From: a virus
Direction: 5' to 3' (one strand)
DNA length: 64,000 nucleotides
IMG/VR virus record: IMGVR_UViG_3300029112_000175
Span: 1,552-65,551 of that record
This document shows positions 2,329-59,399 of this stretch, in pieces (the first letter of the stretch is position 1; each line of letters begins with the position of its first letter). The notes under the pieces were generated by a model that did not search any database, had not been told where the DNA came from, and was given only the letters and a program-made list of their open reading frames with translations. The position numbers were made by a program, and so were the translations under genes.

Positions 2329-2604
2329 TTAATATTCTTCATAATATGTTTCGTGTTTCACCGTTGATTTATTCTTTTCTGCATTCTTTACTTTCTGCAA
2401 GGCTGTTTTCCTGTCCTGAAATACAATTTTATCTAAATCAGTATAATGTAGGAGGTAAGCGTGACGATCACGCTTATCACTCCCTACAAAATAATCATCT
2501 TCCACAGTACGGATAATTAGTTCACAGACTTCAAAAATTCCTGTCTGTGGAATTGCTCTTGCATAGTAAAGGATGTCTTTTTTATGAACATCTTCTTTAG
2601 TCAC
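2329..2604 (-). CDS. hypothetical protein
   Basis: ORF overlapping the nrdG start by 8 nt. Confidence 0.4.
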   Translation of the reverse strand: MTKEDVHKKDILYYARAIPQTGIFEVCELIIRTVEDDYFVGSDKRDRHAYLLHYTDLDKIVFQDRKTALQKVKNAEKNKSTVKHETYYEEY

Positions 2605-3220
2605 AATATAAGACCACCTTTTGTTGTTTTAATGTTTCTGGAATATTGATAACACGCTGATTTTTGCTACCTCGCCACTTCGTTGTTACATCTCTCTGTG
2701 CATCTACATATGGTCCATCTACAAGAACATCTACCATTTTTACAATGTCAATACGCTTTTCTTCCTCTTCTGTTGGAATTGTATTGATAAGCAATGGTTG
2801 TAAAATCTGTTCCAATGTATAACCGGTATATAGCCAGATTGTTTTTGCGGGATATAAAAGGCGGATTTGATCGAAATTTTGTGATGAAAAATCACCCATT
2901 TTACAATGAATTTCAGGGGTCAAATTTGGAGAAGCAGGATATTCAGTGCGAATTTCTTGCAAAAGATCTAAGATACCATCAAGATTTGAAGACGCTAATG
3001 GTTCACCTCCAAGAATTGATATTCTTTTTATATACGGTTTGTCAATTAAATCTAAAAAGTGTTTTTTTGTATCATTATTCCATTCTTTTCCACCATTAAA
3101 ATCCCATGCTGTTGAATTAAAACAGTTGTAACATTGAAAAGGACAGCCTTGGACGAACAAAGATACTCCTATGTTCTCTCCATTTGTAATGTCCATAGAT
3201 CTCATAGAAGCATATCTCAT
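2597..3220 (-). CDS. nrdG: Anaerobic ribonucleoside-triphosphate reductase activating protein (radical SAM)
   Basis: GCPFQCYNCFN cluster motif near the N-terminus. Size is ~207 aa. It sits immediately downstream of nrdD with a start/stop overlap. Confidence 0.8.
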   Translation of the reverse strand: MRYASMRSMDITNGENIGVSLFVQGCPFQCYNCFNSTAWDFNGGKEWNNDTKKHFLDLIDKPYIKRISILGGEPLASSNLDGILDLLQEIRTEYPASPNLTPEIHCKMGDFSSQNFDQIRLLYPAKTIWLYTGYTLEQILQPLLINTIPTEEEEKRIDIVKMVDVLVDGPYVDAQRDVTTKWRGSKNQRVINIPETLKQQKVVLYCD

Positions 3221-9357: not shown

Positions 9358-9550
9358 TTTCGCTCCTTTCTTTCTTATCTAATTGTTCTAACAGATTACT
9401 GCCAAAACAAATAACTCCGTCTATAAAACTTACATATTCCTTATTTTCTACATCATACGCCCATTCTAACGAATCTTTAATAGTGGTAAATAAGGCGTTG
9501 AAAACATCATTTCTTCCCATAGTTTTATTCTCCTTTTTCAACAAAAACAT
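9335..9550 (-). CDS. hypothetical protein
   Basis: ORF in array. Confidence 0.35.
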   Translation of the reverse strand: MFLLKKENKTMGRNDVFNALFTTIKDSLEWAYDVENKEYVSFIDGVICFGSNLLEQLDKKERSENGQSTEN

Positions 9551-9574
9551 CTGATTTTAAGATACAAAATGCCC

Positions 9575-9640
9575 GAACACAAGCGTGTGAACCACTGCGC
9601 CGGATGGTTCTTTGTTCTCTACCCACTTTTTCATAGTATC
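9575..9640 (-). terminator. GC-rich hairpin cluster, candidate intrinsic terminator downstream of 9698..10411
   Basis: GAACCACTGCGCCGGATGGTTC is an inverted repeat and CACAAGCGTGTG is a palindrome. Both sit in an otherwise AT-rich intergenic gap, flanked by T-rich runs. Confidence 0.35.
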
Positions 9641-9697
9641 CTCCACAAAATCTTAATTTTGCTTACCATTCATGCTGCCCTGCTTTAATTTCAAACT

Positions 9698-10995: not shown

Positions 10996-11343
10996 CTAAG
11001 AATTTTTATTTAAGATACTTCCTTTACTGTCCAAAAAAAATACATAATCGCCATTTTCTTGTTTGTAGTTAGAAATATCATTACTTTTAATGGTGATTTT
11101 TGTTCCCATTTCTAAACAACAATATTCCATAAAGAATTTATTACAAGAAGAAGCTGGAATAATTCTAAATGCATTTTCTCCTGCAACTTTAATATCAAAC
11201 GGAACTTCGACCTTAAAACATGAATCAACAACCTCAAGCACTCTAATTGTATTTAAAATAATATTCTTTTTTCGTAAATCACAATAACTTCCATTAAACA
11301 TTTCGGTTTCGTAAACTTTTACTAATTCTTCATGTTTTTCCAT
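10996..11343 (-). CDS. hypothetical protein
   Basis: ORF in array. Confidence 0.35.
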   Translation of the reverse strand: MEKHEELVKVYETEMFNGSYCDLRKKNIILNTIRVLEVVDSCFKVEVPFDIKVAGENAFRIIPASSCNKFFMEYCCLEMGTKITIKSNDISNYKQENGDYVFFLDSKGSILNKNS

Positions 11344-11375
11344 ACTTTATATTTCCTTATATTTTTAATTTTTCA

Positions 11376-11606
11376 CTAATAATATTTATTGGTAATTCCA
11401 ACTCCATTATTTTTCTGAATATCACTTCTGCTTGCTAAAATTTGATATTTAACCTTACAACAATTATGAGGATTGCCACCGCATTTAGTGATATCGTATC
11501 CATGTTCGCACCAAAAATGTTCATTATATCCTTCATAATAACAGCATTTATCTCCTAATTTGTTCTGCCATTTGTTAGGATCATGCCTTGGTTTGTTCTT
11601 TCCCAC
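11376..11606 (-). CDS. Cys-rich small protein
   Basis: Multiple CC/CxxC pairs. Confidence 0.35.
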   Translation of the reverse strand: MGKNKPRHDPNKWQNKLGDKCCYYEGYNEHFWCEHGYDITKCGGNPHNCCKVKYQILASRSDIQKNNGVGITNKYY

Positions 11607-17732: not shown

Positions 17733-17951
17733 CTATGAAAAAACTTTTCTATTTTCATGAACACTAATCCCAATTGTAGAAACAGCTAATCCATAATATT
17801 TTGAAGCATCAGTCATCGAATCAAAACATTTACCGTCATTTAAACATTTAACTTTCTTTGAAAGAACCTCTTTTGTTCTTTCTATGGCTCTTTCCCAATT
17901 TTTTTCATTACCTAATCTAGTATATGGTAACATGTTATCCCTTCTCTTCAT
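17733..17951 (-). CDS. small protein translationally coupled to the radical-SAM gene
   Basis: Its ATG overlaps the radical-SAM TGA as ATGA, inside the repeated 14-mer TCATTCTGAAACGG. Confidence 0.45.
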   Translation of the reverse strand: MKRRDNMLPYTRLGNEKNWERAIERTKEVLSKKVKCLNDGKCFDSMTDASKYYGLAVSTIGISVHENRKVFS

Positions 17952-18859
17952 TCTGAAACGGCATCATATATCTTACCTACTTCATATTTGTAGTCCTCAA
18001 TCTTAGTTCTTCGGTAATAATCACAATAACAATGTCCATCAGTATCAATTACGTATTCAATACCTTTTGTAAGAATAGATGTATCCGATACTCCATGTAA
18101 GAAAAATACCCTCATGCCATCCTTTCTACGAAGCCTGCACCAATGAGAATCTGTTGTTTCTTCATAATTTATTGTATCAAATTGCCATCTTTCATTTTTA
18201 CTTTCAATAAGGTATTCATCAAATATCTTAAATTCTTTCCAAAAAACATCACATCTAAATCTAACAGAAATAAACCCGCATAATTTAGCCCAAGCAATAA
18301 ACATATCCCTCCATTGCCGAAAATTTTCAATTGGTCTAAATATAACCGCACACGCCGACACTGTAATTCCAATATTGTTTAAAGCTTTAATTATATATGT
18401 ATATTCTCCGATACCGATACAAAATCCTAATATTTCGTTTCTTCTATATGGACTCCAATCATGTACTGAAATATTTACATAATTTACAACATCTTTCATA
18501 TACGGGATAACTGCTTTAAGATTCGATCCATTGGATGTCAATGTCACTCTTAGAACTTTAGATTTAATATCATATTCTTTTAGTTTTATCAGCACATCCT
18601 TTAATAATTCAATATCTAATGTAGGCTCGCCACCAGTTATATCAAGAGAAACTGGATTTTTGTTACCAATCAGAGTAATGATATTGTCAAGCGAGGCCAT
18701 AAAGTTATATAAAAATTGTTCCTTGTCATATGATACTTGTTTATCTTTATTGTAACAAAACGGGCATTTGGCATTGCATCCGCTAGGTATCACTAATTTT
18801 ACAGTAATTACCTTATTGTAGTCTTTTCTTTCTATGTATTTCACATTAATCACCATCAT
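17948..18859 (-). CDS. Radical SAM enzyme of unknown function
   Basis: CNAKCPFC (CxxxCxxC) at residues ~28-35. GGEPT glycine-rich SAM motif. C-terminal Cys residues (HCYCDYY). Confidence 0.7.
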   Translation of the reverse strand: MMVINVKYIERKDYNKVITVKLVIPSGCNAKCPFCYNKDKQVSYDKEQFLYNFMASLDNIITLIGNKNPVSLDITGGEPTLDIELLKDVLIKLKEYDIKSKVLRVTLTSNGSNLKAVIPYMKDVVNYVNISVHDWSPYRRNEILGFCIGIGEYTYIIKALNNIGITVSACAVIFRPIENFRQWRDMFIAWAKLCGFISVRFRCDVFWKEFKIFDEYLIESKNERWQFDTINYEETTDSHWCRLRRKDGMRVFFLHGVSDTSILTKGIEYVIDTDGHCYCDYYRRTKIEDYKYEVGKIYDAVSE

Positions 18860-36229: not shown

Positions 36230-37108
36230 TTACTCTTCACCAACAAAAACTAATCTATCAATATATTCTCTACCTTCGCCCTTGAAAATAGGGATATCTA
36301 TATCAATAATCCACTCATTTTCAGACTTAGAAGTATCTCTTAACTGCGCAGTTGTCATGACACTATCAGTTTCAATAACAATCTTATTTCTTACACAACA
36401 GCTTCCTCTCTTCTGATAAGTCGGTAAATCGTTCCAGTTAATACCTTTCTGAGTAATAAGCATATCCTGAATATCATTGCATGATTTATTCTGTAATTCT
36501 TTATGTGAGAAATTAGCTTGACCTACCATCTGAATTGAGTTATGAGAAGCGTCTAATTGCCTCCAATATACGAGATTTGTTACTTCTTCTTTTGGAATAT
36601 TGAAACAACGAGCATCGAACATTGCACCTTTGTCAACTGCTTTTGTGTAAATTTGACACATTTCATATTCTGGTGTACCTTTCCCATACCACCCATTGAT
36701 TTCATGTTCTGTTGCATAACACTGTTCAAAATCCTCTACATTCTTGGAAAAAGCTTTATTAAAAGCCATCGTAGCCATACTTGCCGCAATACTACAAATC
36801 TTCTGTACTTCATAATCAAACCATGCTGAAGATGTGAGCTTCTTATAATCAACAAGAATCAATGTAATCTCATCTGACTGCGTGTAACCAAGAACACAGC
36901 CCTGAATATTCTCGCATAAGTATTTCATTGTTTCCTGCATTGACTTAATTAACACTTCATCAAACGGCTTATGGAATCCTCTTGTGAATGTATGGAACGC
37001 CTTTCCATCAATTCTGATAGCAACTGGACACCTTCTCATTAATTTTGTCTTAGGAATCTGCTCATAAAATGTCTTCATGCGACAGCCTAAATCATCATGT
37101 ACTGGCAT
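36230..37108 (-). CDS. Thg1-like protein (tRNA-His guanylyltransferase family, 3'-5' nucleotidyltransferase)
   Basis: N-terminal block FYEQ...RCPVAIRIDGKAFHTFTRGFHKPFDEVLIKSMQETMKYL...GYTQSDEITLIL aligns closely with eukaryotic Thg1 (YVVVRLDGRNFHRFA..KPND..AYGQSDEYSF). SD AGAGAGGT precedes the ATG. Confidence 0.75.
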   Translation of the reverse strand: MPVHDDLGCRMKTFYEQIPKTKLMRRCPVAIRIDGKAFHTFTRGFHKPFDEVLIKSMQETMKYLCENIQGCVLGYTQSDEITLILVDYKKLTSSAWFDYEVQKICSIAASMATMAFNKAFSKNVEDFEQCYATEHEINGWYGKGTPEYEMCQIYTKAVDKGAMFDARCFNIPKEEVTNLVYWRQLDASHNSIQMVGQANFSHKELQNKSCNDIQDMLITQKGINWNDLPTYQKRGSCCVRNKIVIETDSVMTTAQLRDTSKSENEWIIDIDIPIFKGEGREYIDRLVFVGEE

Positions 37109-42017: not shown

Positions 42018-42788
42018 TTACAATACCTGTACGATCTGCTCATACAGGATCATATCCTTATCATTGATTGCTCTATTGACATGCATATGTCCCATGAACC
42101 AATACTTATATTCGGTTTCTGCTCTAATATTCTCCAAATACTTCGTAAGAATATCCTGTTCATACAAACCTTGTCCTAACAATGCAATAACTGATGCAGG
42201 CGGACTATGAGTGATAATATAATCTACTACATTATTATTCTCTTTTAATTTGTCCAATCCATATTGCATTTCCTGATCAGTTGGAAGTTCTTCTTCCCAC
42301 CAAGTCAGATCTTTTACACGGTACATCCATTTACCGTTTACTTCCAATTCCTTGGCTTGTTCTCGCCAATCCTCATCGTTATAATCAAGAATACCATCTG
42401 AAATATCGTGCGAACTTGCACCACCGAATGTAAAGAATTTTTTACCCTGAATATTGAAAACCTCACCACGCATCATATGTAGAACATGTGGTCTAATTTC
42501 ATGAATCATACCACCATGCCATTCTTTTACAGGATATGTAGCCATTCTTTTATGGTTCTCATGGTTCCCATCTACAAATAGTGTTGTGAATGGTTTATCT
42601 TCTAACCAGTCTAACCAATAATGCTCTGATTTTCTTTCACAATCACGCTGCCATACAAGACCAAAATCACCACAGATGATTACAAAATTTTCATCCTTGT
42701 TTCCGCTAAAATCTTTTTGTTCATAGAAACAATCTTTACTGAACCTGCTTACATCCGCATGGCAATCGCCTGTTACAAATACACTCAA
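42018..42788 (-). CDS. calcineurin-like metallophosphoesterase
   Basis: VFVTGDCHAD, IICGDFG, FVDGNHENH and a GGASSHD..THSPP motif series. Confidence 0.65.
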   Translation of the reverse strand: MSVFVTGDCHADVSRFSKDCFYEQKDFSGNKDENFVIICGDFGLVWQRDCERKSEHYWLDWLEDKPFTTLFVDGNHENHKRMATYPVKEWHGGMIHEIRPHVLHMMRGEVFNIQGKKFFTFGGASSHDISDGILDYNDEDWREQAKELEVNGKWMYRVKDLTWWEEELPTDQEMQYGLDKLKENNNVVDYIITHSPPASVIALLGQGLYEQDILTKYLENIRAETEYKYWFMGHMHVNRAINDKDMILYEQIVQVL

Positions 42789-42817
42789 TATTTATCACTC
42801 CTTTTTATTTTTATTAC

Positions 42818-42886
42818 TTCCTCATCTTGGACTCGAACCAAGTTTTGCAGAGTGAGCTGCCGTGCTTCCTATTACACCAATGAGAA
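42818..42886 (-). tRNA. tRNA-like gene; anticodon loop noncanonical (6-nt loop CUCACU), identity undetermined
   Basis: Minus-strand sequence TTCTCAT-TG-GTGT-AATAGGAA-GCAC-G-GCAG-CTCACT-CTGC-AAAA-CTTGG-TTCGAGT-CCAAG-ATGAGGA-A. Acceptor stem is perfect at 7 bp. T-arm is CTTGG/CCAAG with loop TTCGAGT. D-arm has a GG loop. No encoded CCA. Confidence 0.5.
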
Positions 42887-43034
42887 ACCATAAACGTTTT
42901 ATTAAGTGGCTCTGTTGCTTAAGTCTGCGCATCAACCAAGCAATAACAATCCGATGGGAAATTTGTTTTTAAAGTTTTACATCCTCTTGCCACCGTTCTG
43001 CGACTTTCCACATCACAGATGAATCAGAGCCAAC

Positions 43035-43106
43035 GGCGAATACCGGATTTGAACCGATACTTCTGAGATCAAACCTCAGTGTACTACCTGATTATACTAA
43101 TTCGCT
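43035..43106 (-). tRNA. tRNA-Gln (anticodon UUG)
   Basis: Anticodon stem CTGAG/CTCAG with loop GTTTGAT, giving U33, UUG and A37. T-arm ATCGG/CCGGT with loop TTCAAAT. D-arm GTAT/GTAC with GG loop. Acceptor GCGAAT/ATTCGC. No encoded CCA. Confidence 0.7.
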
Positions 43107-43142
43107 AGATGTGACTGATTTCTCAGCCACTTATTTATTCTC

Positions 43143-43409
43143 TTATTCCTTCTGAAGATTTACTAATGCTTCATTATAATATCCAATCTGATCCATCATT
43201 TCACGTAAATGTTCAATAAACATTTCATAAGACTTTGCATAAGCAGGATATGTCTCGATCCACTGTAAAGACTCTTTGATACTTTCGCATTCCTGAATTT
43301 TTAACAGCGTATCTTTATCATCTTTATAGATATTCTCTAGTTCTTTCATAATCTCATCTGCACTTAATCCTTTTAACATTTCTACTTCATTTTCAGTCAA
43401 CTTTCTCAT
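43143..43409 (-). CDS. hypothetical protein
   Basis: ORF in array. Confidence 0.4.
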   Translation of the reverse strand: MRKLTENEVEMLKGLSADEIMKELENIYKDDKDTLLKIQECESIKESLQWIETYPAYAKSYEMFIEHLREMMDQIGYYNEALVNLQKE

Positions 43410-43424
43410 ATTGTCTTTCCTCTC

Positions 43425-43685
43425 TTATTCTTTATTTTTATTCCATTTAACTACAACCAGTCTTACAATTGCGCCACCCCATGCAATAAACCAAATCACT
43501 GGACCAGCAAAACAGAACTTCAAGAAATTCCATCCGATTATTCCCCATGTTAATGCTCCTGATCCGTATGCAGCATAGCAGTCAAGAATTGGTTTAATTA
43601 ACATCAGCCATCCACCTACATACAAACCAATAAGAAATCCTAAAACTAAAATTACATCTCCAATTTTATTTCTCATCTTTATCAT
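43425..43685 (-). CDS. small membrane protein
   Basis: Hydrophobic helices. Confidence 0.4.
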   Translation of the reverse strand: MIKMRNKIGDVILVLGFLIGLYVGGWLMLIKPILDCYAAYGSGALTWGIIGWNFLKFCFAGPVIWFIAWGGAIVRLVVVKWNKNKE

Positions 43686-43896
43686 CTTCTCCTAATTTTT
43701 CTACTTTCTTATACAGAAAGTGCCATGTATATAATAGTACATCACTTATAATAATAGACGTCAGAAACACTGTCATATTATCATCAATGCAAATCATATA
43801 ATATTCTGCAAAGAAAATAATAATCATTATTGTAGCCTGTACTACACCAGCAGCAATAATATACAATAGCTGTTTAGTTTTATTATTTAATTCCAT
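43666..43896 (-). CDS. small membrane protein
   Basis: Hydrophobic helices. Confidence 0.4.
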   Translation of the reverse strand: MELNNKTKQLLYIIAAGVVQATIMIIIFFAEYYMICIDDNMTVFLTSIIISDVLLYTWHFLYKKVEKLGEDDKDEK

Positions 43897-44146
43897 CTAA
43901 ACTTACTCTCCTATTCCATGCCTCAATTGCCTTACCGGCAGTAAAAGCCTCCTCTATTGGATCACCATTTGCTAATGAATTATATAATATTGACTTATAA
44001 GTAGTTCTTTCGCATCCACATGTGCCACCTCTTGCATGGCAACTATTACATCTCACAGAATATATACTTCTGCCATTTCTTGATTTCTTGTCAACTTTCA
44101 ATTTATTACTGCCGCAAAACGGACAAGGTTTTAATGTCTGTTCCAT
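43883..44146 (-). CDS. Lar-family restriction-alleviation-like Zn-ribbon protein
   Basis: N-terminal KPCPFCGS...C.SC pattern typical of the Lar family. Confidence 0.45.
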   Translation of the reverse strand: MEQTLKPCPFCGSNKLKVDKKSRNGRSIYSVRCNSCHARGGTCGCERTTYKSILYNSLANGDPIEEAFTAGKAIEAWNRRVSLDGIK

Positions 44147-44273
44147 ATATTTATTCTCCTTTAGTAAACTTTTTGGTAAGGAAATATATGTCCCTACCAG
44201 AAATATTCTCTAAATTATTTTCCACCAATAGTCATAAACTTTTTTATAAAAACGACCTCTATGTATTATGGTT

Positions 44274-44696
44274 TTATCTTTCCTCACAGCACGATTTGCC
44301 ATCTTTTTGTAATATCCGGCTAAATTTCCATGTCCTTTTTTTAGAAAGCCAGCATCTCTTATATCGTGCGATTTCGCCTAATGTATATGAGCCATTTTGG
44401 AAATTCCATTTTTCTAAAGGTTTACCATTTCGATCAACTGGATATACAGGCGAAGGATACCTTTTAAGATTATCAGAAAGAAATTTTAGATGTGTCTTAT
44501 ATTTATTCTCTGAATTTTTCCAATCACGGGATTTTTTCTTCTTATAATCGGTGGCTGTAAGTCTAATTTTTCTGGATGAAAGATGAGTTTCATCGGAAAT
44601 TTTTTCTATATATTGTGGTAATTCATCTTCAAATATACAATATATAGTATTGCATTTTTGATAAACACCAAAATATGGACAGCTATCACACAACAT
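44274..44696 (-). CDS. hypothetical protein
   Basis: ORF in array. Confidence 0.4.
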   Translation of the reverse strand: MLCDSCPYFGVYQKCNTIYCIFEDELPQYIEKISDETHLSSRKIRLTATDYKKKKSRDWKNSENKYKTHLKFLSDNLKRYPSPVYPVDRNGKPLEKWNFQNGSYTLGEIARYKRCWLSKKRTWKFSRILQKDGKSCCEER

Positions 44697-44703
44697 ATAT
44701 TTT

Positions 44704-45144
44704 TCACCACCACAAATGTCTAAAATATTTAGAAAACAGCTCTAGTCCTTCTTTAATTGCTTCATTCCGTCTATCCTGCTCTGTATCTCGATTATTTTCA
44801 ATCTCTTTGGCCCAATCGTCTATACGAAAATGAAATAATGTTTTTTTATCTTTATCTATTTCTATATGAATGCCATCCGAATAATCATATCTCGGATCAT
44901 CAACCCACCAATCATCATCCGTAACGATATACTCAAAAGCAGTAATCATCTTCTGTAAAATATCTTGCCACTTATTCATAGTATCTGCTTCATCATAACC
45001 AGGAAAACCTAAACTATTTTCTTTGAATTTAATTAGCCTTGGCAGTACAAACTTCGCCACAGTATAATCCAAATTCCATAATTCTTTCGGAGCAATATAT
45101 TGGCCATGTTTCTTAAGCCATTTCTTTCTTGTTCTCTGTCTCAT
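44704..45144 (-). CDS. hypothetical protein
   Basis: Its ATG overlaps the upstream reading frame's TGA as ATGA. Confidence 0.4.
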   Translation of the reverse strand: MRQRTRKKWLKKHGQYIAPKELWNLDYTVAKFVLPRLIKFKENSLGFPGYDEADTMNKWQDILQKMITAFEYIVTDDDWWVDDPRYDYSDGIHIEIDKDKKTLFHFRIDDWAKEIENNRDTEQDRRNEAIKEGLELFSKYFRHLWW

Positions 45145-45421
45145 TCTTTATATTCCTCCAATTCATACAATCCATTGATCTTATTATCCAACTCAGCCAC
45201 TTCTTGTCTTAATTTATTTGCTTTTTTCTTACTATCTGTTTTAATATATTCAGTCCATTTTTTCTTACGTAAGTTTGTCACTTCCTTGTACAACTCATCG
45301 CAGTCTTTTTCATCTACAACTGCCAGCTCAATCTTCTCTCCACAATTGCCAGCTTCTGAGCGATAGTGGATTTACCACTACCACTCAGCCCAACAAGTAA
45401 CATCAATTTAGGTTTATTCAT
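45141..45421 (-). pseudogene. P-loop nucleotide/polynucleotide-kinase-like gene remnant, frameshifted
   Basis: ATG at 45419-45421 gives MNKPKLMLLVGLSGSGKSTIAQKLAIVERRLSWQL, then TAG. The -1 frame continues ...EKIELAVVDEKDCDELYKEVTNLRKKKWTEYIK...EYKE and ends in a TGA overlapping the next ATG. No intact ORF of 60 aa or more. Confidence 0.45.
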
Positions 45422-46733
45422 TAACCGTCTCCTTATATAATTCTTCTGCTTCTTCCATATCAGGTGCATCAGATGTGTCCTTAATTAAACCCTCACATAC
45501 TTTAAATTCAAACACTTTGTCCTTAAAAGCAGTAAATGTAGGTCTATTATCAATACGAATAACTACACCCTCTGCAATATGTGTTTTGCCAATCTCATCT
45601 GCTGGCATTCCATCAATATATTTATGTACTCTTTCCTGGAGATCTTCTGGTGTTGTAAAAATAAACTTTTCTAAGTCAGGTACATGCTTAACTCCAAGCT
45701 TATCGCACCATACTTTAACAGTTTCCCAAGGAACTTCAAACACAGTTCCATCTGCTGTTGTTGCGGTCATTCGATATACATACATTTCATTTTCGCCAGG
45801 TTTACAACCATAAGAGAATGTTGTAGTATCTCCGAATTTCTTAGTGAATTCTTTTTCTTTTACACCTCTATTAGAAACAGACCCCATAATTGGAGTAGAT
45901 TCATTTACCCATCCTACAATCTCATAAAAAACCGATAATCCTTCTGGAAGTCTGTCTTTTAATAAATCATGATATTTTTTTCTAAAACTATTATCAGAAT
46001 AATATCCATCATTCTTAGTCATATCCTTTAGCACAACTCTTCTGCTACCAGATACCACAGAAACTTCTTTAAAGATTTTCGGCGGCATATGTAATAATTT
46101 TCTCAGCCGATTAGTTTTCTTTGTAACCTTGACTGTTTTCATTGTCCTGGCTGAAGTACCGTGGAGTTTGCGAGTAATATAAATAGTATCTCCTGGTTTA
46201 AAAGCAGACATATTGTATGCAAGCTGTGCAGTATCTTTATGCTCTTCAAAGAATGGATAAGATACAGTTTCTTTAGAATTTTTATGACTCTTTTTGGAAC
46301 TTCCAGTATTATTTCTTACTCGATTTTTACCTTTGGGAATATATTTACGACAAATCTCATGACCATCCAGAACAGTGATCTGATCACCATCTTTTAATTT
46401 AGAAATGTTAGTGTATTTAGAAAGTGTTTCAATTGGTAATACAAGACCTTCAGATTTTTCTCCTCGAAGTCTGATGGCTGTTACATTTCTTTTATCAGGG
46501 TCCATATAGCCACCAGTATTATTACCATTTTCATCTTTTACTCTTATCAAATTGTTCTCTGTTGCATATTCTAATGAAAGCTGTCCATCAGAAGGAAAGA
46601 AAATAACTTTCTGACCTTCTTTATAACTTAAATCTACAATTACATTCTGCCCAAATACTTCTACACACTGCAGCCTATCTGCATTACTGTGTTTTCTCAA
46701 ACCTTTTAACGTTGTTACATAAGCACAATACAT
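45414..46733 (-). CDS. ATP-dependent RNA ligase (Rnl2-like nucleotidyltransferase) with N-terminal Myf/EMAP-type tRNA-binding OB domain
   Basis: N-terminal YVTTLKGLRKHSNADRLQCVEVFGQNVIVD...IRLRGEKSEGLVLPIETL matches the tRNA_bind (HPNADKL...LRGVxSEGM) pattern. Ligase motifs: I ITRKLHGTSAR, III FYEIVGW, IV IAEGVVIRID, V FKDKVFEFK. Confidence 0.6.
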   Translation of the reverse strand: MYCAYVTTLKGLRKHSNADRLQCVEVFGQNVIVDLSYKEGQKVIFFPSDGQLSLEYATENNLIRVKDENGNNTGGYMDPDKRNVTAIRLRGEKSEGLVLPIETLSKYTNISKLKDGDQITVLDGHEICRKYIPKGKNRVRNNTGSSKKSHKNSKETVSYPFFEEHKDTAQLAYNMSAFKPGDTIYITRKLHGTSARTMKTVKVTKKTNRLRKLLHMPPKIFKEVSVVSGSRRVVLKDMTKNDGYYSDNSFRKKYHDLLKDRLPEGLSVFYEIVGWVNESTPIMGSVSNRGVKEKEFTKKFGDTTTFSYGCKPGENEMYVYRMTATTADGTVFEVPWETVKVWCDKLGVKHVPDLEKFIFTTPEDLQERVHKYIDGMPADEIGKTHIAEGVVIRIDNRPTFTAFKDKVFEFKVCEGLIKDTSDAPDMEEAEELYKETVNE

Positions 46734-46803: not shown

Positions 46804-47505
46804 TTAATTTTCTAATTTGTTACCTTTAGCTTCATTACAAGGCTTACACATTGTTTGATAGTTACTAATATCATCAATACCACCTTTTGAGCGTGGTAAA
46901 ATATGATCTTTTGTCATTAAAATTTCTGTACCATTATCATCAACTGCATATAAATTCAGATGATATGCTTTATCTTGTAAATGTCTTTCTTTTGCAAAAT
47001 ATTTTCCTTCAATTCCACAAATTGCGCATTTACAACCTTTTGTGAAAAAAGTCTGATATCTTTGACTGTTACCCTTAATCAAATCTCCATCGAAATCAAT
47101 CTTTACATTTCTCTTATCTTTTTCAAATAGAATGTCTTTTACTTTTTCTCTAACTTCATCAATGGAATATACTTCTTTGCGAATCAAGTCCTCGTGTTTT
47201 TGTTTTTGCTTTAGTTTTGATTTGCAAAATTGCTTAGTTAATAAAGTATTACAAATATCTTCATTACTCAAAATAATTAACAAATCTTTTACTGTTTTAA
47301 TCTGGTTAGGAATATAATCAGAAAGTAAATGTCTATTCCAAACAATCTTAAAAATTTCTGTATCCAAATTTGGTGATAATGGATTATTGTTCTTGGGAAA
47401 ACTCGTATTTAAGAAATCTTCAATAGTTTTATATTTGTCTAATAACTCCTTATCATTAAAACGATAATGAAATTTAAGACCTTTAAAAAAATTCTTTTTG
47501 CTCAT
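46804..47505 (-). CDS. HNH endonuclease
   Basis: C-terminal DHILPRSKGGIDDISNYQTMCKPCNEAKGN. Confidence 0.65.
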   Translation of the reverse strand: MSKKNFFKGLKFHYRFNDKELLDKYKTIEDFLNTSFPKNNNPLSPNLDTEIFKIVWNRHLLSDYIPNQIKTVKDLLIILSNEDICNTLLTKQFCKSKLKQKQKHEDLIRKEVYSIDEVREKVKDILFEKDKRNVKIDFDGDLIKGNSQRYQTFFTKGCKCAICGIEGKYFAKERHLQDKAYHLNLYAVDDNGTEILMTKDHILPRSKGGIDDISNYQTMCKPCNEAKGNKLEN

Positions 47506-48567: not shown

Positions 48568-50178
48568 CTATTCGATACACTTAAAAGATACATCTGTTCT
48601 ACGATTCATAGCCTTATGTTCATCTGTATCATTATCTACTATAGGTTTACTAGATCCATTACCTACAGTAATAATTCTATCAGCAGAAATTCCATTTAAT
48701 ACAAAATACTGTTTTACAGTTTCTGCTCTCTGCTGAGATAACATCTTATTGGCAGTATCTTCAGGATCAGAATATGGATTAGGGTCAGTATTACCAGCAA
48801 TCTCAATAATTGTTCCATCCAGAACTTTCGCAATACTGATAAAGTCATCTAATTTCTGAGTAGCTTCAGCGGAGTCAGTAAACTTTGCGGTATTAATAAT
48901 AAAGTTTACCGTTGCAGATTTCTGTAATAATGCAGTAGTATCAAGTACCTCCTGTTTATTCTCTTCTGTGACAGTTACATTTACATCAGTCTTTGTAATA
49001 TCCTGTGCATCGTACTTAGTTTCCAGTTTAGAAACATAAGTATTATCAAAAATAGTATTTAATAAATCCCTATTTACAGTTTCACCAATAGATTCCCAAA
49101 CTCCACACATATCAGAAAAAATTGTCTTTGCAGTTCCATTAAGTAAACTCATGTTATCAGCATATGTGCATAATTTTGCAGATTCACAATTTCCTAAAAT
49201 ATCCTCATCAGAGGCAGTAGAAAACATCGGCATGACAGACTTAATAGTAGTTAAATCAGTAGTGTATAAATCAGCCGCCTGAAAAGCGCCATCAATAAAT
49301 GCAGTTACAGTATCTGGATATTTCTTTGCAAAATCATCATTAAATAAAATTCCATCCATAATTAAACTGGAAGAACTTGCAGTGCTAAATAGGATATGTG
49401 CATCAGACATATTCTGTGCCTGAGTTAAATATGGTTCCCATGTTGCAGCTACATCAATCTGGCCTGCAAAGAAAGCTTTTGCTGCTTCATCTGGTGTTTC
49501 AAAATATACAAGATTATTAATAATAGAATCTTTTTCTTCCTGGGTTAAATCAGACTGGTTTACAAACCAAACCACTAAAGAATGAGCCTCTGAGAACTGT
49601 GGAACGCCAATTTTTGCATTTACTAAATCAGATACAGAATTAATAGAAGATTTTGTGATAATGCCATCTCCACCATTAGAGAAATTGCTGATGTATGGCA
49701 TAATTACATTTAGGCCTGCGTCCTGAAACTTTTTAGATAAGAAAGCGGTTCTGTTAATGGTATAGCCTGCTGCATCTAATTTCCCACTAATTAAAGCGTT
49801 GCTAGACTGGGTTGCATCATTGATGATGCTAATATTTACTTTTATTCCAAGTTTGTCATAGATGGAACCTGGTTGTGTGGTAAGCCCGTTGTTGGCGTCA
49901 ATAATTGGTTTCCAACCGATCCACTCATCAAGAGACACATTGATTGTTTTATCATCTACCTTATCAGTGTTAATTACGTTACCATCATCATCCGCTGCTA
50001 CAGGAGCTGCCATCTCTGGCTGTTTAGAGGTGTTTTCTGTCTTTGTAGTTTCTTTTTTACTGTGTTTAATAAATCCTGTTTTTAATCCTAAAACTACACC
50101 GCCACCAATTAATGCCATGATAAGAATCATGATCAATACTTTTGCTGCTTTAGTCAGCCGAAATCTTCTTGTACTCAT
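48568..50178 (-). CDS. Membrane-anchored NMT1/SsuA-like substrate-binding domain fused to C-terminal OmpA/MotB peptidoglycan-binding domain
   Basis: N-terminal TM helix (VLIMILIMALIGGGVVLGL). Central periplasmic-binding-protein-like region. C-terminal OmpA signature NTDPN...AMNRRTDVSF. Confidence 0.5.
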   Translation of the reverse strand: MSTRRFRLTKAAKVLIMILIMALIGGGVVLGLKTGFIKHSKKETTKTENTSKQPEMAAPVAADDDGNVINTDKVDDKTINVSLDEWIGWKPIIDANNGLTTQPGSIYDKLGIKVNISIINDATQSSNALISGKLDAAGYTINRTAFLSKKFQDAGLNVIMPYISNFSNGGDGIITKSSINSVSDLVNAKIGVPQFSEAHSLVVWFVNQSDLTQEEKDSIINNLVYFETPDEAAKAFFAGQIDVAATWEPYLTQAQNMSDAHILFSTASSSSLIMDGILFNDDFAKKYPDTVTAFIDGAFQAADLYTTDLTTIKSVMPMFSTASDEDILGNCESAKLCTYADNMSLLNGTAKTIFSDMCGVWESIGETVNRDLLNTIFDNTYVSKLETKYDAQDITKTDVNVTVTEENKQEVLDTTALLQKSATVNFIINTAKFTDSAEATQKLDDFISIAKVLDGTIIEIAGNTDPNPYSDPEDTANKMLSQQRAETVKQYFVLNGISADRIITVGNGSSKPIVDNDTDEHKAMNRRTDVSFKCIE

Positions 50179-51479: not shown

Positions 51480-52091
51480 TTATAAATTTATAATCACATC
51501 ACACATTTTCTTTGCTTCTTCATTACTGTGTGTAACTATGATCACTGTATTATTCTCTACTTTATGTTGTTTTAACACGAGATTCTGCATTGTAGTTCTA
51601 GTTTGCGGATCAAGTGCAGATAACGGTTCATCCATTAATATAATTGCCGGTTTTGTAAATAATGTTCTGGCTAAAGCTAATCGTTGTCGCTGCCCTCCAG
51701 ATAATTGTTTCGGAAACTTTTTTTCGTAATTTTCAAGACCGACCTGTTTTAAAAAATCTTTTGCCAATTTAACATCTTCTTTTGTAACAGATCTTTTTAT
51801 TTTAACTGGCAATAAAATATTCTCTAAACAGTTCATCCAATCAAATGAAGTATAATTTTGGTGCATCATGAAAATATTGTTCTTTGAAGCTTTGGTTATT
51901 TTTTCTCCATCTACAATTATTTCACCATTTAATGGCTTCATTAATCCGGCAATTGTTCTAAGCAACGTTGTTTTTCCACAGCCAGATTCTCCTAAAATTC
52001 CATAAATTTTTTTATCGAATTTCATTGAATAATTTTTTAGTAATGGCTTATCTCTACTATAGCCAGTGGTTAGATCTTTTAATTTAATCAT
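51480..52091 (-). CDS. ABC transporter ATP-binding protein (NitT/TauT-type)
   Basis: Walker A GESGCGKTT. Signature LSGGQRQRLALAR. Walker B IILMDEPLSALD. Confidence 0.75.
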   Translation of the reverse strand: MIKLKDLTTGYSRDKPLLKNYSMKFDKKIYGILGESGCGKTTLLRTIAGLMKPLNGEIIVDGEKITKASKNNIFMMHQNYTSFDWMNCLENILLPVKIKRSVTKEDVKLAKDFLKQVGLENYEKKFPKQLSGGQRQRLALARTLFTKPAIILMDEPLSALDPQTRTTMQNLVLKQHKVENNTVIIVTHSNEEAKKMCDVIINL

Positions 52092-52830
52092 CTAAATACC
52101 TCCATTTAAATGCCCATTTAATTATTCTCTTACTAGCCCAATCAAATATGACGCTGATAATCATAATTACCATAATTGCCATAAAAACCATATCCGTTCT
52201 TCCTCTTGAGGAGCTTTGCTGAATAATCCATCCCAATCCGTAATGTGCATTAATTGTTTCTGCCACGGCAATGTATGTAAAACCGATACCGTACATCATT
52301 ACGAAGCTATTTAATATACTTGGCAGTGAAGCAGGAAGCTGAATTTTATATACAGTTTGTAGTTTATTCATTCCTATAGTCAAACCCGTATCAATCAAAT
52401 CCTGATTCACTTCTTCCAAACAGAGAATTACAGATGGCATCATATATACGAATGTTGCGATAAATAAGAACACAATCTTCATAAGTTCATCAATCCCAAA
52501 CCACATAATAAGTAAAGGATAAAATGCTGTAACTGGGATATATCTTAATGCACTGATAATTGGATTTAAAAAATCTTTTATTAATGGAATATTGAAAATT
52601 AATAGAGCTATTGGTAAAGAAATTATTGATGAAAGAATTGCTGCTATAGTCACTCTAAAAAAAGAATATTTAATCGCAATAAATATTTCTCCATTACATA
52701 TCAATACATATAAATTCCTAAATACGCTTTTAGGACTTGGTACAAAAATAGGATTATAATATCGTGCAGTAGTTGACCAGATCAAAAAAATACACAGAAT
52801 CAATAAAAATCTTTTTAATATATTTTTCAT
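52084..52830 (-). CDS. ABC transporter permease (TauC/SsuC-like)
   Basis: Six predicted TM segments. EAA-like loop IAVAETINAHYGLGW. Confidence 0.55.
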   Translation of the reverse strand: MKNILKRFLLILCIFLIWSTTARYYNPIFVPSPKSVFRNLYVLICNGEIFIAIKYSFFRVTIAAILSSIISLPIALLIFNIPLIKDFLNPIISALRYIPVTAFYPLLIMWFGIDELMKIVFLFIATFVYMMPSVILCLEEVNQDLIDTGLTIGMNKLQTVYKIQLPASLPSILNSFVMMYGIGFTYIAVAETINAHYGLGWIIQQSSSRGRTDMVFMAIMVIMIISVIFDWASKRIIKWAFKWRYLDD

Positions 52831-58436: not shown

Positions 58437-59399
58437 TCAGGATTCTCTGGTAAAGAAGTATTTTTTCTTATCATAAGCTAATCTTTTATCCAACTCATCC
58501 ACCAACTCATAAAATTCAGGAATCGGCTGATCGTTACCGTCCAGATATTTACCATTGCGAATATCCATCAATAAGTCATGTTCTTTTCCTCTGTATGTAA
58601 CAATTTTTTCATTCTCTAAAATGTCAAAACACATATAATAAAGACGAACTAAATGCATCATGTGTTTTCCTAGTTTTCCATGTTCGATAGCATTCTGATT
58701 ACGCTTCCCAATCTTCGCATAATCTTTTACTACACAGTTCATTTCAGACCACATTGCTTTATAATCTCTCAATGGATAATGTTTAAAATTCATATCCATG
58801 AAAATTTCTGTATTATAATCTTCTTTATCTGACTTATCAATATAGAGCTTAAGTGAATCTTCTGGATAATAAGCATATTTGCTAGGAAATGTATATACGG
58901 CATTCATAATACTATTGAGAATATGTTGTTCTCTTTCTTCTTGCCCTACTACTCTTGCCGCCTTATTACTTAAACGCCGAAGCTGCTGGTTCGCATAACC
59001 ACCAAAAGAATACACAGCTTTCCTGGATAAAAATAAATGGGCATTATCTAATAATTCCTGACCAATCGGTGTTACGTATAAATAATGCTCAGGCTTTAAT
59101 CCTAACAACTCAATAGTATTAGGATTTACATTCAGTAATAACGAAACTAACTTATTGAACGAATATATTGTTGTATCAGTCTGTTCATTTACGAACTGTT
59201 CAAAATTCTGATTAGTCAAAATATCCATCTTGCTATTTAAGGCACAGCCGCGGCAATCCAAGTCCGAATTCTCTACATTAGTGCCATAGGCATAACTACC
59301 ACCCAAACCAAGAAGAATAATATTCTTTCCAAGATGCTCATTGGTTCTTAGAAAATCATATTCTCCACTACTGACTTTTTTCTTAATCTCATCAATCAT
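58437..59399 (-). CDS. Pol-beta-superfamily nucleotidyltransferase
   Basis: LLGLGGSYAYGTNVENSDLDCRG matches the GS-x(9-13)-DxD minimal NTase motif. A helical C-terminal domain follows. Confidence 0.5.
   Translation of the reverse strand: MIDEIKKKVSSGEYDFLRTNEHLGKNIILLGLGGSYAYGTNVENSDLDCRGCALNSKMDILTNQNFEQFVNEQTDTTIYSFNKLVSLLLNVNPNTIELLGLKPEHYLYVTPIGQELLDNAHLFLSRKAVYSFGGYANQQLRRLSNKAARVVGQEEREQHILNSIMNAVYTFPSKYAYYPEDSLKLYIDKSDKEDYNTEIFMDMNFKHYPLRDYKAMWSEMNCVVKDYAKIGKRNQNAIEHGKLGKHMMHLVRLYYMCFDILENEKIVTYRGKEHDLLMDIRNGKYLDGNDQPIPEFYELVDELDKRLAYDKKKYFFTRES

Follow-up and report, generated by a model that had tools for sequence, protein, structure and literature searches.

Positions 42018 to 46733 of a 64,000-nucleotide stretch of viral DNA (referred to here as the window) hold genes for an RNA ligase, a P-loop peptide, a metallophosphoesterase and tRNAs, all on the minus strand (Table 1), and the question they raise is whether these form a single pathway of tRNA repair. 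The phage, from gut-type metagenomes, has a genome of ~150 kb, and the window is its arm for replication and nucleotide metabolism. The original prediction was of a tRNA-centred healing-and-sealing cluster with its modules split into separate genes. The genes it listed are indeed present, but what the locus holds is no new system: it is a known phage cassette for RNA repair in damaged form, with its Rnl5 ligase intact and its kinase–phosphatase deleted.

Table 1. Features of the ligase locus and other relevant genes in the window
Feature	Position	Strand	Evidence
Rnl5-family ATP-dependent RNA ligase, 439 aa, intact	45414..46733	-	Pfam, PHROGs, profile vs PDB, AF2 + Foldseek
Polynucleotide kinase-HD remnant, codons 1-25, P-loop GLSGSGKST	45347..45421	-	tblastn with intact 295-aa relative (L007)
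Deletion junction, 2,297 bp missing vs L005/L006/L007	45346..45347	.	blastn blocks and boundary sequences
C-terminal remnant of truncated 151-aa Cys-rich ORF	45141..45346	-	Alignment to L007 9685-9890
146-aa protein, phrog_11543, no assigned function	44704..45144	-	PHROGs E 3.5e-15
140-aa protein, no assigned function	44274..44696	-	ORF; no family match
Lar-like restriction-alleviation protein	43883..44146	-	PF14354 E 1.3e-8, phrog_599 E 1.8e-14
tRNA-Gln(UUG), canonical	43033..43107	-	ARAGORN; Rfam RF00005 54.2 bits, E 6.5e-10
tRNA-like gene	42817..42887	-	ARAGORN 'tRNA-???'; MFE cloverleaf
Calcineurin-like metallophosphoesterase, 256 aa, TTG start	42018..42788	-	PF00149 E 4.5e-10
Free-standing HNH endonuclease	46804..47505	-	PF14279 E 2.9e-11, PF01844 E 9.6e-10
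Thg1-like protein	36230..37108	-	PF04446 E 1.4e-30; PDB 4kgk E 8.8e-61
RlaP	58437..59399	-	PF10127 E 5.7e-13
NAD-dependent DNA ligase	7363-9357		

The ligase ORF contains every motif that had been quoted for it (HSNADRLQCVEV, LRGEKSEGLVL, KLHGTS, FYEIVGW, EGVVIR and FKDKVFEFK), and is laid out as an OB domain (residues ~1-135, nt 46733-46329), a Lys/Ser-rich disordered linker (136-155) and a nucleotidyltransferase domain running from residue 156 to the C-terminus, with K189 in motif I (nt 46169-46167), E271 in motif III, E388-G389 in motif IV and K404/K406 in motif V. It matches the Pfam RNA_ligase family (E 9e-11) and phrog_968 (E 1e-71), together with the PHA02142 OB-fold at an E of 6e-4, below the curated cutoff. 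The proposed combination of an OB domain with an Rnl2-like core was borne out both by a profile built from 47 homologs, for which the best match in the PDB was NgrRnl (5cot, E 1.8e-10, over an alignment that spans the OB domain up to and including motif I), and by an AF2 model (pLDDT 91.9), for which the top 13 Foldseek matches were all NgrRnl (E ~1e-17, TM 0.70 across both domains), with T4 Rnl2 next but well behind (E 4e-8). The protein thus belongs to the Rnl5 family, and is a divergent branch of it, since it falls below the PHA02142 cutoff, scores 49.9 bits against the curated cutoff of 151 for its best NCBIfam match, the DraRnl model TIGR02306, and is ~100 aa longer than NgrRnl. Among the homologs K189, E388, G389, K404 and K406 are invariant, E271 is conserved, and so are D49 and K130, which correspond in the alignment to D53 and K121 of NgrRnl, residues that touch the ATP gamma-phosphate and its metal (PMC7261155).

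The N-terminal domain had also been taken as the ligase's own means of recognising tRNA. It is indeed an OB domain, akin to the tRNA_bind/PheRS-B2 fold and fused to an Rnl2-like nucleotidyltransferase, and has distant profile similarity to the B2 domain of PheRS-beta, to YgjH and to the C-terminal tRNA-binding domain of MetRS (E 0.027-0.63; PMC1807946). This fusion is, however, the defining and previously described architecture of Rnl5 (PMC7261155, PMC1807946), and the sole role demonstrated for the domain is in lysine adenylylation, via the gamma-phosphate contact in NgrRnl (PMC7261155). Characterised Rnl5 enzymes seal duplex nicks, and their physiological role has been called uncharted, with DNA repair a possibility (PMC5397189). 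Anticodon-loop breaks are not obvious substrates for this family; tRNA is a plausible substrate of the ligase here. The ligase has a pN/pS of 0.08 when compared with an 86%-identical relative.

Immediately after the ligase gene lies the P-loop peptide, starting at 45421, where the kinase start codon overlaps the ligase stop codon. It had been described as the N-terminus of a frameshifted kinase, and of this the kinase remnant stands but the frameshift does not. Only residues 1-25 of the intact 295-aa protein of a relative (L007) find a match here, at 100% identity by tblastn, and the ORF then continues to 45314 as a 35-aa chimera of these kinase codons and the tail of the unrelated 151-aa ORF. 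Comparison with three 99%-identical relatives (L005, L006 and L007) reveals a clean deletion of the segment corresponding to L007 positions 7388-9684, which holds codons 26-295 of the polynucleotide kinase-HD (Pnk-HD) gene, small ORFs of 75, 199 and 71 aa, and two thirds of the 151-aa Zn-ribbon ORF, counted from its start; the boundary sequences share no microhomology beyond chance. The 25-codon stub, which lacks the catalytic Asp, is what remains of a polynucleotide kinase, and no other Pnk-HD copy was found in the window, the 64 kb of the ~150-kb genome that the search for a substitute kinase or phosphatase covered. The deletion is a real circulating variant, because the same scar is read on many contigs from independent metagenomes, in mosaic backgrounds of 92-100% identity, and 168 blocks of the collection contain the chimeric product. 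It is also recent, as four contigs of the deletion lineage have ligase genes with 0 nucleotide differences, and for want of such variation the retention of the ligase after the loss of its partner says nothing about selection.

What was lost is evident from the relatives, in which the intact kinase sought at this position was found: of 87 loci in related phages, 80 have a full-length 295-aa gene for a polynucleotide kinase-HD phosphoesterase directly after the ligase, and in 63 of those 80 the tblastn match begins 4 nt before the ligase match ends, meaning that the genes overlap. Ancestrally, therefore, the locus was a heal-and-seal cassette, and the modules here are those of a broken cassette, its kinase and fused HD phosphoesterase deleted, rather than ones split into separate genes. 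Loci further afield have the pair too, as does Bacillus phage Kirov, in which it is annotated as an RNA ligase followed by a polynucleotide kinase; in Kirov and Thrax, the nearest cultured phages, it has been interpreted in print as a system against anticodon nucleases, namely anti-PrrC repair (PMC9703825). The intact kinase-HD protein matches the CthPnkp kinase domain (PDB 4gp7, E 1.7e-11), Pnkp1 (4xrp) and, weakly, T4 Pnk, and in NCBIfam TIGR04075 (bacter_Pnkp), the HD region of the CCA-adding enzyme model TIGR02692, and HDIG. An N-terminal kinase of the CthPnkp/T4 Pnk type with a C-terminal HD phosphoesterase is the architecture reported for the Pnkp of phage RM378, and HD-like phosphatases are covered, with RlaP and Thg1, in a catalogue of phage RNA-repair genes (PMC7824862). 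From these family matches, the healer of 3' ends in the relatives would be the HD domain and not, as had been proposed, the metallophosphoesterase.

We consider it likely, taking these results together, that the locus is an intact Rnl5 ligase from what was ancestrally a two-gene heal-and-seal cassette, that its healing gene has been deleted, and that the other genes are mosaic neighbours. By family, Lys189 would be adenylylated by ATP, the leaving pyrophosphate being positioned by the OB domain, AMP would be transferred to a 5'-phosphate end, and attack by a 3'-OH RNA end would seal the break, preferably at a duplex-held nick. In the ancestral arrangement the overlapping second gene would supply both a 5'-kinase and an HD 2',3'-phosphoesterase, and the cassette may have mended breaks ending in 5'-OH and 2',3'-cyclic-phosphate groups, made by host ribonuclease defences in tRNA or some other structured RNA. 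The deletion, which took three and a half downstream genes along with all but 25 codons of the healing gene, would leave a ligase still able to seal 3'-OH/5'-phosphate ends in a phage with no dedicated enzyme of its own for ribotoxin-type ends.

An alternative is that the ligase serves DNA replication or repair, sealing nicks in which the 3'-OH strand ends in ribonucleotides, such as RNA-primed or ribonucleotide-containing junctions, which would explain its survival without the kinase–phosphatase. At a duplex nick, Rnl5 enzymes need the 3'-OH side to be RNA but tolerate DNA in every other position, and Deinococcus becomes more sensitive to ionising radiation when DraRnl is lost, a role in DNA or RNA repair being left open by the authors (PMC5397189). 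The gene also sits in the replication arm, as do genes for DNA polymerase, DnaB-like helicase, RecJ, Sak4 and NrdD, and a second, independent lineage (L053/L083) has likewise lost Pnk-HD and kept a full-length ligase. Against this, the phage has an NAD-dependent DNA ligase, the deletion in the window is too recent to show that selection keeps the RNA ligase, and the overlapping pairing with Pnk-HD argues for joint action on ends with 5'-OH and 3'-phosphate groups, the typical products of ribonuclease cleavage. Two further genes from this part of the genome are markers of RNA repair, so that the phage evidently invests in RNA repair: a Thg1-like 3'-5' polymerase, of the type that repairs tRNA 5' ends, and RlaP, an RNA-ligase-associated Pol-beta nucleotidyltransferase. 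The former, whose PDB match is titled 'Thg1-like uncharacterized protein', is near the ligase in L069, L080, L087 and L100; the latter, of a described family (PMC7824862, PMC12776372), lies within 10 kb of it in L058, L061, L064, L080, L086 and L158. We therefore regard a DNA role as unlikely.

Slightly less likely again is the working split cluster first envisaged, in which the metallophosphoesterase would open 2',3'-cyclic phosphates, the kinase phosphorylate 5'-OH ends and the OB domain recognise cleaved tRNA, with the tRNA genes marking the cluster. The distant resemblance of the OB domain to tRNA-binding domains agrees with it, as do the Thg1-like and RlaP genes, which point to tRNA repair, and there are precedents for the use of phosphatases of the calcineurin-like type in bacterial Pnkp and a few jumbo phages (PMC2190708, PMC7824862). 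The metallophosphoesterase, identified as such from GDCHAD, GDFG and GNHE, moreover has all seven metal ligands and a complete active site, in a fold of the Dbr1/CWF19L1/MPPED2 branch that resembles Dbr1/CWF19 and not lambda phosphatase. Its gene, however, comes within 10 kb of the ligase gene in no relatives but the nearest, L005-L007 (beyond which L055 shows a partial match at its edge and L101 a distant homolog), and its close homologs sit in unrelated phage contexts; the two are not conserved partners. Nor do the tRNAs regularly accompany the ligase, being found near it at 7 of 90 loci (counted in the fetched flanks, 5-10 kb around it) and missing from 99%-identical relatives: L005 and L006, elsewhere 83-99% identical to the window, lack tRNA-Gln(UUG). 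Against the cluster too are the loss of the kinase and the OB domain's demonstrated role, which is confined to adenylylation.

That the ligase is a functionless leftover, not yet decayed in an idle locus, is very improbable: the identical ligase genes do mark the event as recent and the partner that made ligatable ends is gone, but the deletion allele has persisted through recombination in many samples, in backgrounds 3-8% different with mosaic replacements and with the ligase ORF intact, the L053/L083 lineage also keeps its full-length ligase, and end healing could come from host or other phage enzymes.

The Lar gene and the small ORFs are, like the metallophosphoesterase and the tRNA genes, ordinary mosaic neighbours and not parts of the cassette. 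The Lar-like assignment was upheld, and the gene is near the ligase only in L005-L007; between it and the tRNAs lie three more small ORFs, two of them hydrophobic, which the original list of small genes had omitted. The 140-aa protein, with no family match in Pfam or PHROGs, is missing from some deletion-lineage contigs (L091 and L093), and the 146-aa protein, a neighbour of the ligase, has a 48%-identical copy upstream of the ligase in L001-L004. ARAGORN calls both of the predicted tRNA-type genes, but only tRNA-Gln(UUG) is canonical. The other has canonical acceptor, D and T arms and no Rfam match at E<=1, and in its present form is no decoding tRNA, because its anticodon stem is of 4 bp and its loop of 6 nt; its counterparts in six relatives keep the three stems via compensatory changes, with both partners altered in 11 of 17 pairs and with pairing in 93% of cells, vs 30-51% in slid controls. 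Immediately upstream of the ligase, and in the same position in most of the 87 loci by tblastn, is the HNH endonuclease, which is probably a homing endonuclease.

The 439-residue protein of this region can be assigned, by profile and by modelled fold, to a divergent phage branch of the Rnl5 family of RNA ligases. This family is defined in the literature by an OB module joined to a nucleotidyltransferase domain, with an N-terminal module that resembles the B2 OB fold of PheRS, and it has already been recorded in bacteriophages (PMC1807946, PMC7261155). Pfam places RNA_ligase at residues 183-397 of the phage protein and, below threshold, the PHA02142 OB-fold at residues 6-101, while PHROGs assigns it to phrog_968 "RNA ligase" (E 1e-71). 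A single-sequence phmmer search against the PDB returned no match. A profile made from an alignment of 47 homologs (A1, 32-82% identity) matched the Naegleria gruberi RNA ligase NgrRnl (5COT, E 1.8e-10) from the OB domain through motif I, placing K189 opposite the NgrRnl nucleophile K170, with weak matches to the PheRS-beta B2 domain, YgjH, the MetRS C-terminal domain and T4 Rnl2. When the AlphaFold (AF2) model (pLDDT 91.9) was compared with the PDB by Foldseek, the top 13 matches were all NgrRnl and covered both domains (~425 alignment columns, E ~1e-17, TM 0.70 on the target); T4 Rnl2 and REL1 ranked behind these and aligned with the nucleotidyltransferase domain only.

The AF2 model and the 5COT profile match bear out the Rnl5 domain order, in which an N-terminal OB module precedes the C-terminal nucleotidyltransferase and a further C-terminal specificity domain is lacking. 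As a family member the enzyme would be expected to seal 3'-OH/5'-phosphate nicks in an Mn-dependent manner, with RNA needed on the 3'-OH side. The motif I KxxG lysine, motif III Glu, motif IV EG and motif V lysines are all present; K189 (KLHGTS), E388-G389 and K404/K406 are invariant across the 47 homologs and E271 is kept in at least 90% of them. In the OB domain the HMM alignment sets D49 opposite NgrRnl Asp53 and the nearly invariant K130 opposite Lys121. A counterpart of NgrRnl Arg4 is not evident at the N-terminus, and the OB-domain contacts of NgrRnl are reported to be redundant (PMC7261155). The phage ligase differs from NgrRnl in being only ~16% identical to it and ~100 aa longer, the additional length lying in a disordered Lys/Ser linker, longer I-III and III-IV spacings and an extra C-terminal helix. 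Its best NCBIfam match is the model of Deinococcus radiodurans DraRnl, TIGR02306 (RNA_lig_DRB0094), which aligns with residues 12-195 only and scores 49.9 bits against a cutoff of 151.15; as this model is an equivalog for DraRnl, the score marks a divergent branch and is no sign of a different fold.

The domain reading of the original prediction, an OB domain joined to a ligase core, was therefore right, with NgrRnl the best match by both profile and fold. The tRNA-recognition domain of its own that the prediction had treated as an unusual trait of the ligase is nevertheless the hallmark of the family, since the same fusion is what defines Rnl5. What has been shown for the Rnl5 OB domain is contact with the ATP gamma-phosphate and a requirement in lysine adenylylation, with no tRNA binding reported (PMC1807946, PMC7261155), and the physiological role of the family has been described as uncharted (PMC5397189). 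Action of the ligase at RNA-ended nicks in DNA is one alternative role, which we consider quite unlikely. Another reading, that the gene is a decaying leftover in this window, is very improbable. The phage branch is large (2,345 cluster representatives at E<=1e-3), and across the family the ligase is under strong purifying selection (pN/pS 0.08 against an 86%-identical relative, L008).

Eight ligase homologs (P0123, P0131, P0134, P0150, P0153, P0190, P0208 and P0259) are ~790-810 aa long, about double the usual size. Each aligns with the query in two segments that part near residue 200, at motif I, which suggests intein-type insertions at the active-site motif. A DNA methylase with an intein was also seen in one related locus (L004).

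In related phages the ligase is accompanied by a gene for a 295-aa polynucleotide kinase with an HD phosphoesterase domain, which we refer to as Pnk-HD. A Pnk-HD match adjoins the ligase in 87 of 87 related loci and is full length in 80 of these, so the expectation that related phages would carry an intact kinase at this position was borne out. The two genes overlap in 63 loci, where the tblastn match to Pnk-HD begins 4 nt before the ligase match ends. At 45-50% ligase identity a Pnk-type kinase lies within 5 kb in several loci, though not in all. For the N-terminal half of Pnk-HD the closest match is the Clostridium thermocellum Pnkp kinase domain (4gp7, E 1.7e-11), with further matches to Pnkp1 and, at low significance, to T4 Pnk (1ltq, E 0.13); the SSD catalytic aspartate is included. 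The C-terminal half carries the HD motif CHDLGK and matches the HD region of CCA-adding enzymes and HDIG, with a weak match to Pfam HD. Scans of IMG/VR for distant loci with two representative proteins (P0165 and P0235) found nothing.

In the window this healing gene is reduced to codons 1-25 (45347-45421). The original prediction had noted a kinase N-terminus that was now frameshifted; the P-loop N-terminus is indeed present, but translation and blastn against three intact relatives with 99%-identical ligases (L005-L007), in which the 295-aa gene starts in overlap with the ligase stop codon, show a clean deletion with no indel. Window positions 47358-45347 align with L007 5376-7387 at 99.5% identity and positions 45346-41650 with L007 9685-13320, leaving 2,297 bp of L007 absent from the window. 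The lost segment comprises Pnk-HD codons 26-295, three small ORFs and the greater part of a 151-aa Cys-rich ORF, of which a tail remains at 45141-45346. A second kinase-HD copy in the window was ruled out, as only the 25-residue remnant matches. The ligase is thus encoded here with neither a complete 5'-OH kinase nor a 2',3'-cyclic phosphodiesterase or 3'-phosphatase, the HD domain of the relatives having gone with the deletion.

The deletion is real and is circulating. The exact 26-nt junction sequence is absent from IMG/VR and JGI metagenome contigs. The chimeric 35-aa product that it creates is nevertheless indexed in 168 blocks of a larger assembly collection and could be read on contigs from several independent runs and samples, which rules out an assembly artefact. 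One deletion-bearing contig matches the window at 100% identity across 8,087 bp; the others are 92-97% identical and carry mosaic replacements downstream. The deletion is recent, because the ligase genes of four deletion-lineage contigs are nucleotide-identical and the window ligase has the family consensus at all three residues that differ from the intact-lineage ligase (P0001). Being recent, it says nothing for or against selection on the orphaned ligase. A second internal Pnk-HD deletion is found in L053 and L083 (~11320-11520), where the gene keeps its P-loop N-terminus, joined directly to its final ~40 codons, beside an intact ligase; this event is independent of that in the window, and loss of the healing gene looks recurrent.

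Genes and RNA features of the ligase neighbourhood and of the wider window, with counterparts of the tRNA-like gene in related loci
Feature	Position	Strand	Remarks
Anaerobic ribonucleotide reductase NrdD	3221-5467	-	
Activase-like radical-SAM protein	2597-3220	-	
Second radical-SAM gene	17948-18859	-	
Thg1-like protein (3'-5' nucleotidyltransferase, tRNA 5'-end repair type)	36230-37108	-	PF04446 E 1.4e-30; PDB 4kgk E 8.8e-61
Calcineurin-like metallophosphoesterase, 256 aa, TTG start	3' of tRNA calls	-	PF00149, E 4.5e-10
tRNA-like gene	42817-42887	-	ARAGORN; anticodon stem 4 bp, loop 6 nt
tRNA-Gln(UUG)	43033-43107	-	ARAGORN; Rfam 54 bits; sole canonical tRNA of the two calls
Three small ORFs (two hydrophobic)	between Lar gene and tRNA calls	-	
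Lar-like protein	3' of 140-aa ORF	-	PF14354, E 1.3e-8
50-aa, 146-aa and 140-aa ORFs	3' of P-loop ORF	-	146 and 140 aa: no known function
Walker-A ORF (GLSGSGKST)	ATG at 45421, overlaps ligase stop codon	-	
RNA ligase, 439 aa	45414-46733	-	contains all motifs quoted in the original prediction
HNH endonuclease, free-standing	46804-47505	-	directly upstream of ligase; likewise in most relatives
NMT1-type substrate-binding protein fused to OmpA-like domain (ABC-transporter set)	48568-50178	-	
ATPase (ABC-transporter set)	51480-52091	-	
Permease (ABC-transporter set)	52084-52830	-	
RlaP, RNA-ligase-associated Pol-beta nucleotidyltransferase	58437-59399	-	PF10127 E 5.7e-13; ~12 kb from ligase
tRNA-like counterpart	L007 12073-12143		
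tRNA-like counterpart	L055 16978-17048		
tRNA-like counterpart	L077 17334-17404		
tRNA-like counterpart	L083 18355-18425		
tRNA-like counterpart	L057 18625-18695		
tRNA-like counterpart	L059 18306-18376		

The metallophosphoesterase conserves 7/7 canonical metal ligands. Sequence searches of it against the PDB gave nothing significant, and in a fold comparison aq_1956, PptH and MPPED2 were among the matches, below the leading ones; it looks like an active phosphodiesterase of Dbr1-like type. As a partner of the kind found in Pnkp it fails, as it lies outside the lambda-phosphatase branch and is unlinked to kinase and ligase in relatives. A copy within 10 kb of the ligase is confined to L005-L007, apart from a match at the edge of L055 and a distant homolog in L101, and its homologs at 68-71% identity sit in phage loci that have neither ligase nor kinase. 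Nothing ties it to the ligase. The proposed three-enzyme cluster accordingly resolves into a known cassette of two genes, with the healing half lost, among unrelated mosaic genes. The free-standing HNH gene probably encodes a homing endonuclease linked to the conserved ligase gene. A scan for promoters and terminators performed at chance level and offers no guide to operon structure.

Both tRNA-type genes of the original prediction are called by ARAGORN, but only the tRNA-Gln(UUG) is canonical. It has an A1-C72 mismatch atop the acceptor stem. The tRNA-like gene lacks the 5-bp anticodon stem and 7-nt loop of a tRNA, does not reach the Rfam gathering threshold and gave no match to RF00005 at E<=1. 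tRNA genes fall within the fetched flanks (5-10 kb) of the ligase in 7 of 90 loci, and the 294-bp segment with both tRNA-type genes is present in L007 and absent from L005 and L006, which are otherwise near-identical genomes. Divergent relatives also have the tRNA-like gene, next to genes for tRNA-Gln, tRNA-Ile and tRNA-Leu. Covariation preserves the acceptor, D and T stems, with 11 of 17 pairs changing on both sides and 93% of cells pairing, against 30-51% in slid controls. None of the versions has an anticodon arm fit for decoding, the arm being too short or irregular throughout (3-5 bp stem, 3-6 nt loop). The gene may serve as a decoy or a processing signal, or may be a pseudogene.

The observation behind the original prediction is therefore largely correct and its interpretation partly supported: the ligase is a divergent representative of an established family, and the cassette that it belongs to is also a known one, here partly deleted. 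The nearest ligases of cultured phages are 51% identical over their full length and belong to Bacillus phages Kirov, vB_BcoS-136, PBC2 and Thrax1/3 and Lysinibacillus phage LC76P1; a megablast of the region against cultured phages gave no match. In Kirov, which resembles Thrax and PBC2 in being ~165 kb with the pair in its replication arm, the annotated "RNA ligase" is directly followed by a "polynucleotide kinase", and the Thrax pair has been explicitly read as T4-like anti-PrrC RNA repair (PMC9703825). A phmmer search with the HD half of the relatives' Pnk-HD gave no sign of such a domain in the kinase of Kirov. The phage described here differs in being metagenomic and distantly related, with its kinase deleted.

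Three further systems invite comparison. T4 Pnkp and Rnl1, which repair tRNA-Lys as a counter to PrrC, share with the intact relatives the principle that a phage 5'-kinase/3'-phosphatase heals and an ATP-dependent ligase seals, but here the ligase is of the nick-sealing Rnl5 type with an OB domain, not Rnl1, the relatives' phosphatase is HD, not DxDxT/HAD, and the healing enzyme is gone from the window. By its described architecture, an N-terminal P-loop kinase and a C-terminal HD domain related to CCA-adding enzymes, Pnk-HD can be likened to phage RM378 Pnkp, the only enzyme of the proposed kinase-then-HD subfamily with demonstrated HD-borne 3'-phosphatase activity (PMC1997131), whereas Deinococcus PNKP and Runella HD-Pnk have the reverse domain order. 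In bacterial Pnkp/Hen1 systems the C. thermocellum enzyme, to whose kinase that of the relatives is closest, combines kinase, metallophosphoesterase and Rnl4 ligase; a calcineurin-like phosphoesterase lies in this neighbourhood too, but the ligase is Rnl5, not Rnl4, and no Hen1 gene was seen among the window ORFs examined.

In intact relatives the kinase would phosphorylate 5'-OH ends, the HD domain would take off 2',3'-cyclic or 3'-phosphates and the Rnl5 ligase would then seal via lysyl-AMP and RNA-adenylate intermediates, the probable purpose being to reverse damage from host ribonuclease defences. The window phage could presumably seal only ready-made 3'-OH/5'-phosphate ends, unless host or other phage enzymes heal them.

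RNA repair is a genuine theme of this phage because of its RlaP and Thg1-like genes, though not through the cluster originally proposed, and it is probably tRNA repair. Together with the tRNA genes of the window, these two genes are indirect evidence that the cassette may repair tRNA cleaved by a host anticodon nuclease. The best PDB match of the Thg1-like protein, 4kgk, was deposited as a "Thg1-like uncharacterized protein". Both types of protein are catalogued as phage RNA-repair components, along with HD-like and calcineurin-like phosphatases (PMC7824862), and recent work has demonstrated that RlaP repairs RNA with damaged 3' ends (PMC12776372). In some relatives the two genes show a loose linkage to the ligase, RlaP lying within 10 kb of it in several. 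Thg1-like enzymes are reported as only sporadic in phages.

A broader reading, which we regard as unlikely, is that this gut-phage family maintains a dispersed tRNA-repair toolkit in which the tRNA_bind-like Rnl5 OB domain directs the ligase to broken tRNAs and the healing gene is recurrently lost under selection. Its parts may be the Rnl5 ligase with its overlapping Pnk-HD, RlaP, the Thg1-like 3'-5' polymerase, the tRNA genes and the tRNA-like RNA with its crippled anticodon arm. Loss of the healing gene at least twice (in the window and in L053/L083) with the ligase kept would then reflect selection and not neutral decay, such as evasion of a host defence able to sense or exploit the kinase-phosphatase. 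If true, the physiological substrate that has long been missing for the Rnl5 family would be broken tRNA.

For annotation, the analysis corrects the over-reading of a "tRNA-recognition" ligase and a three-enzyme cluster. For biology, it brings out a phage family, large and abundant, whose Rnl5 gene is closely coupled to that of a kinase-HD enzyme. Its lineages with and without the healing gene co-circulate, and this natural comparison bears on the target of Rnl5 repair and on a possible role of the cassette against host ribonuclease defences. Two smaller leads are the Dbr1-like metallophosphoesterase and the conserved tRNA-like gene.

An identical contig of 150,943 bp indicates a phage of ~150 kb, of which the window is the replication and nucleotide-metabolism arm, encoding a large DNA polymerase, RecJ, a DnaB-like helicase, Sak4 and an NAD-dependent DNA ligase together with NrdD/NrdG (anaerobic), dUTPase, guanylate kinase, a Clp protease and an ABC transporter. 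The NrdD and radical-SAM genes are consistent with a strictly anaerobic (gut) host. The ABC-transporter set is an unusual auxiliary module for a phage, and in some relatives a block of TerD, vWA and P-type ATPase genes stands upstream of the ligase in its place.
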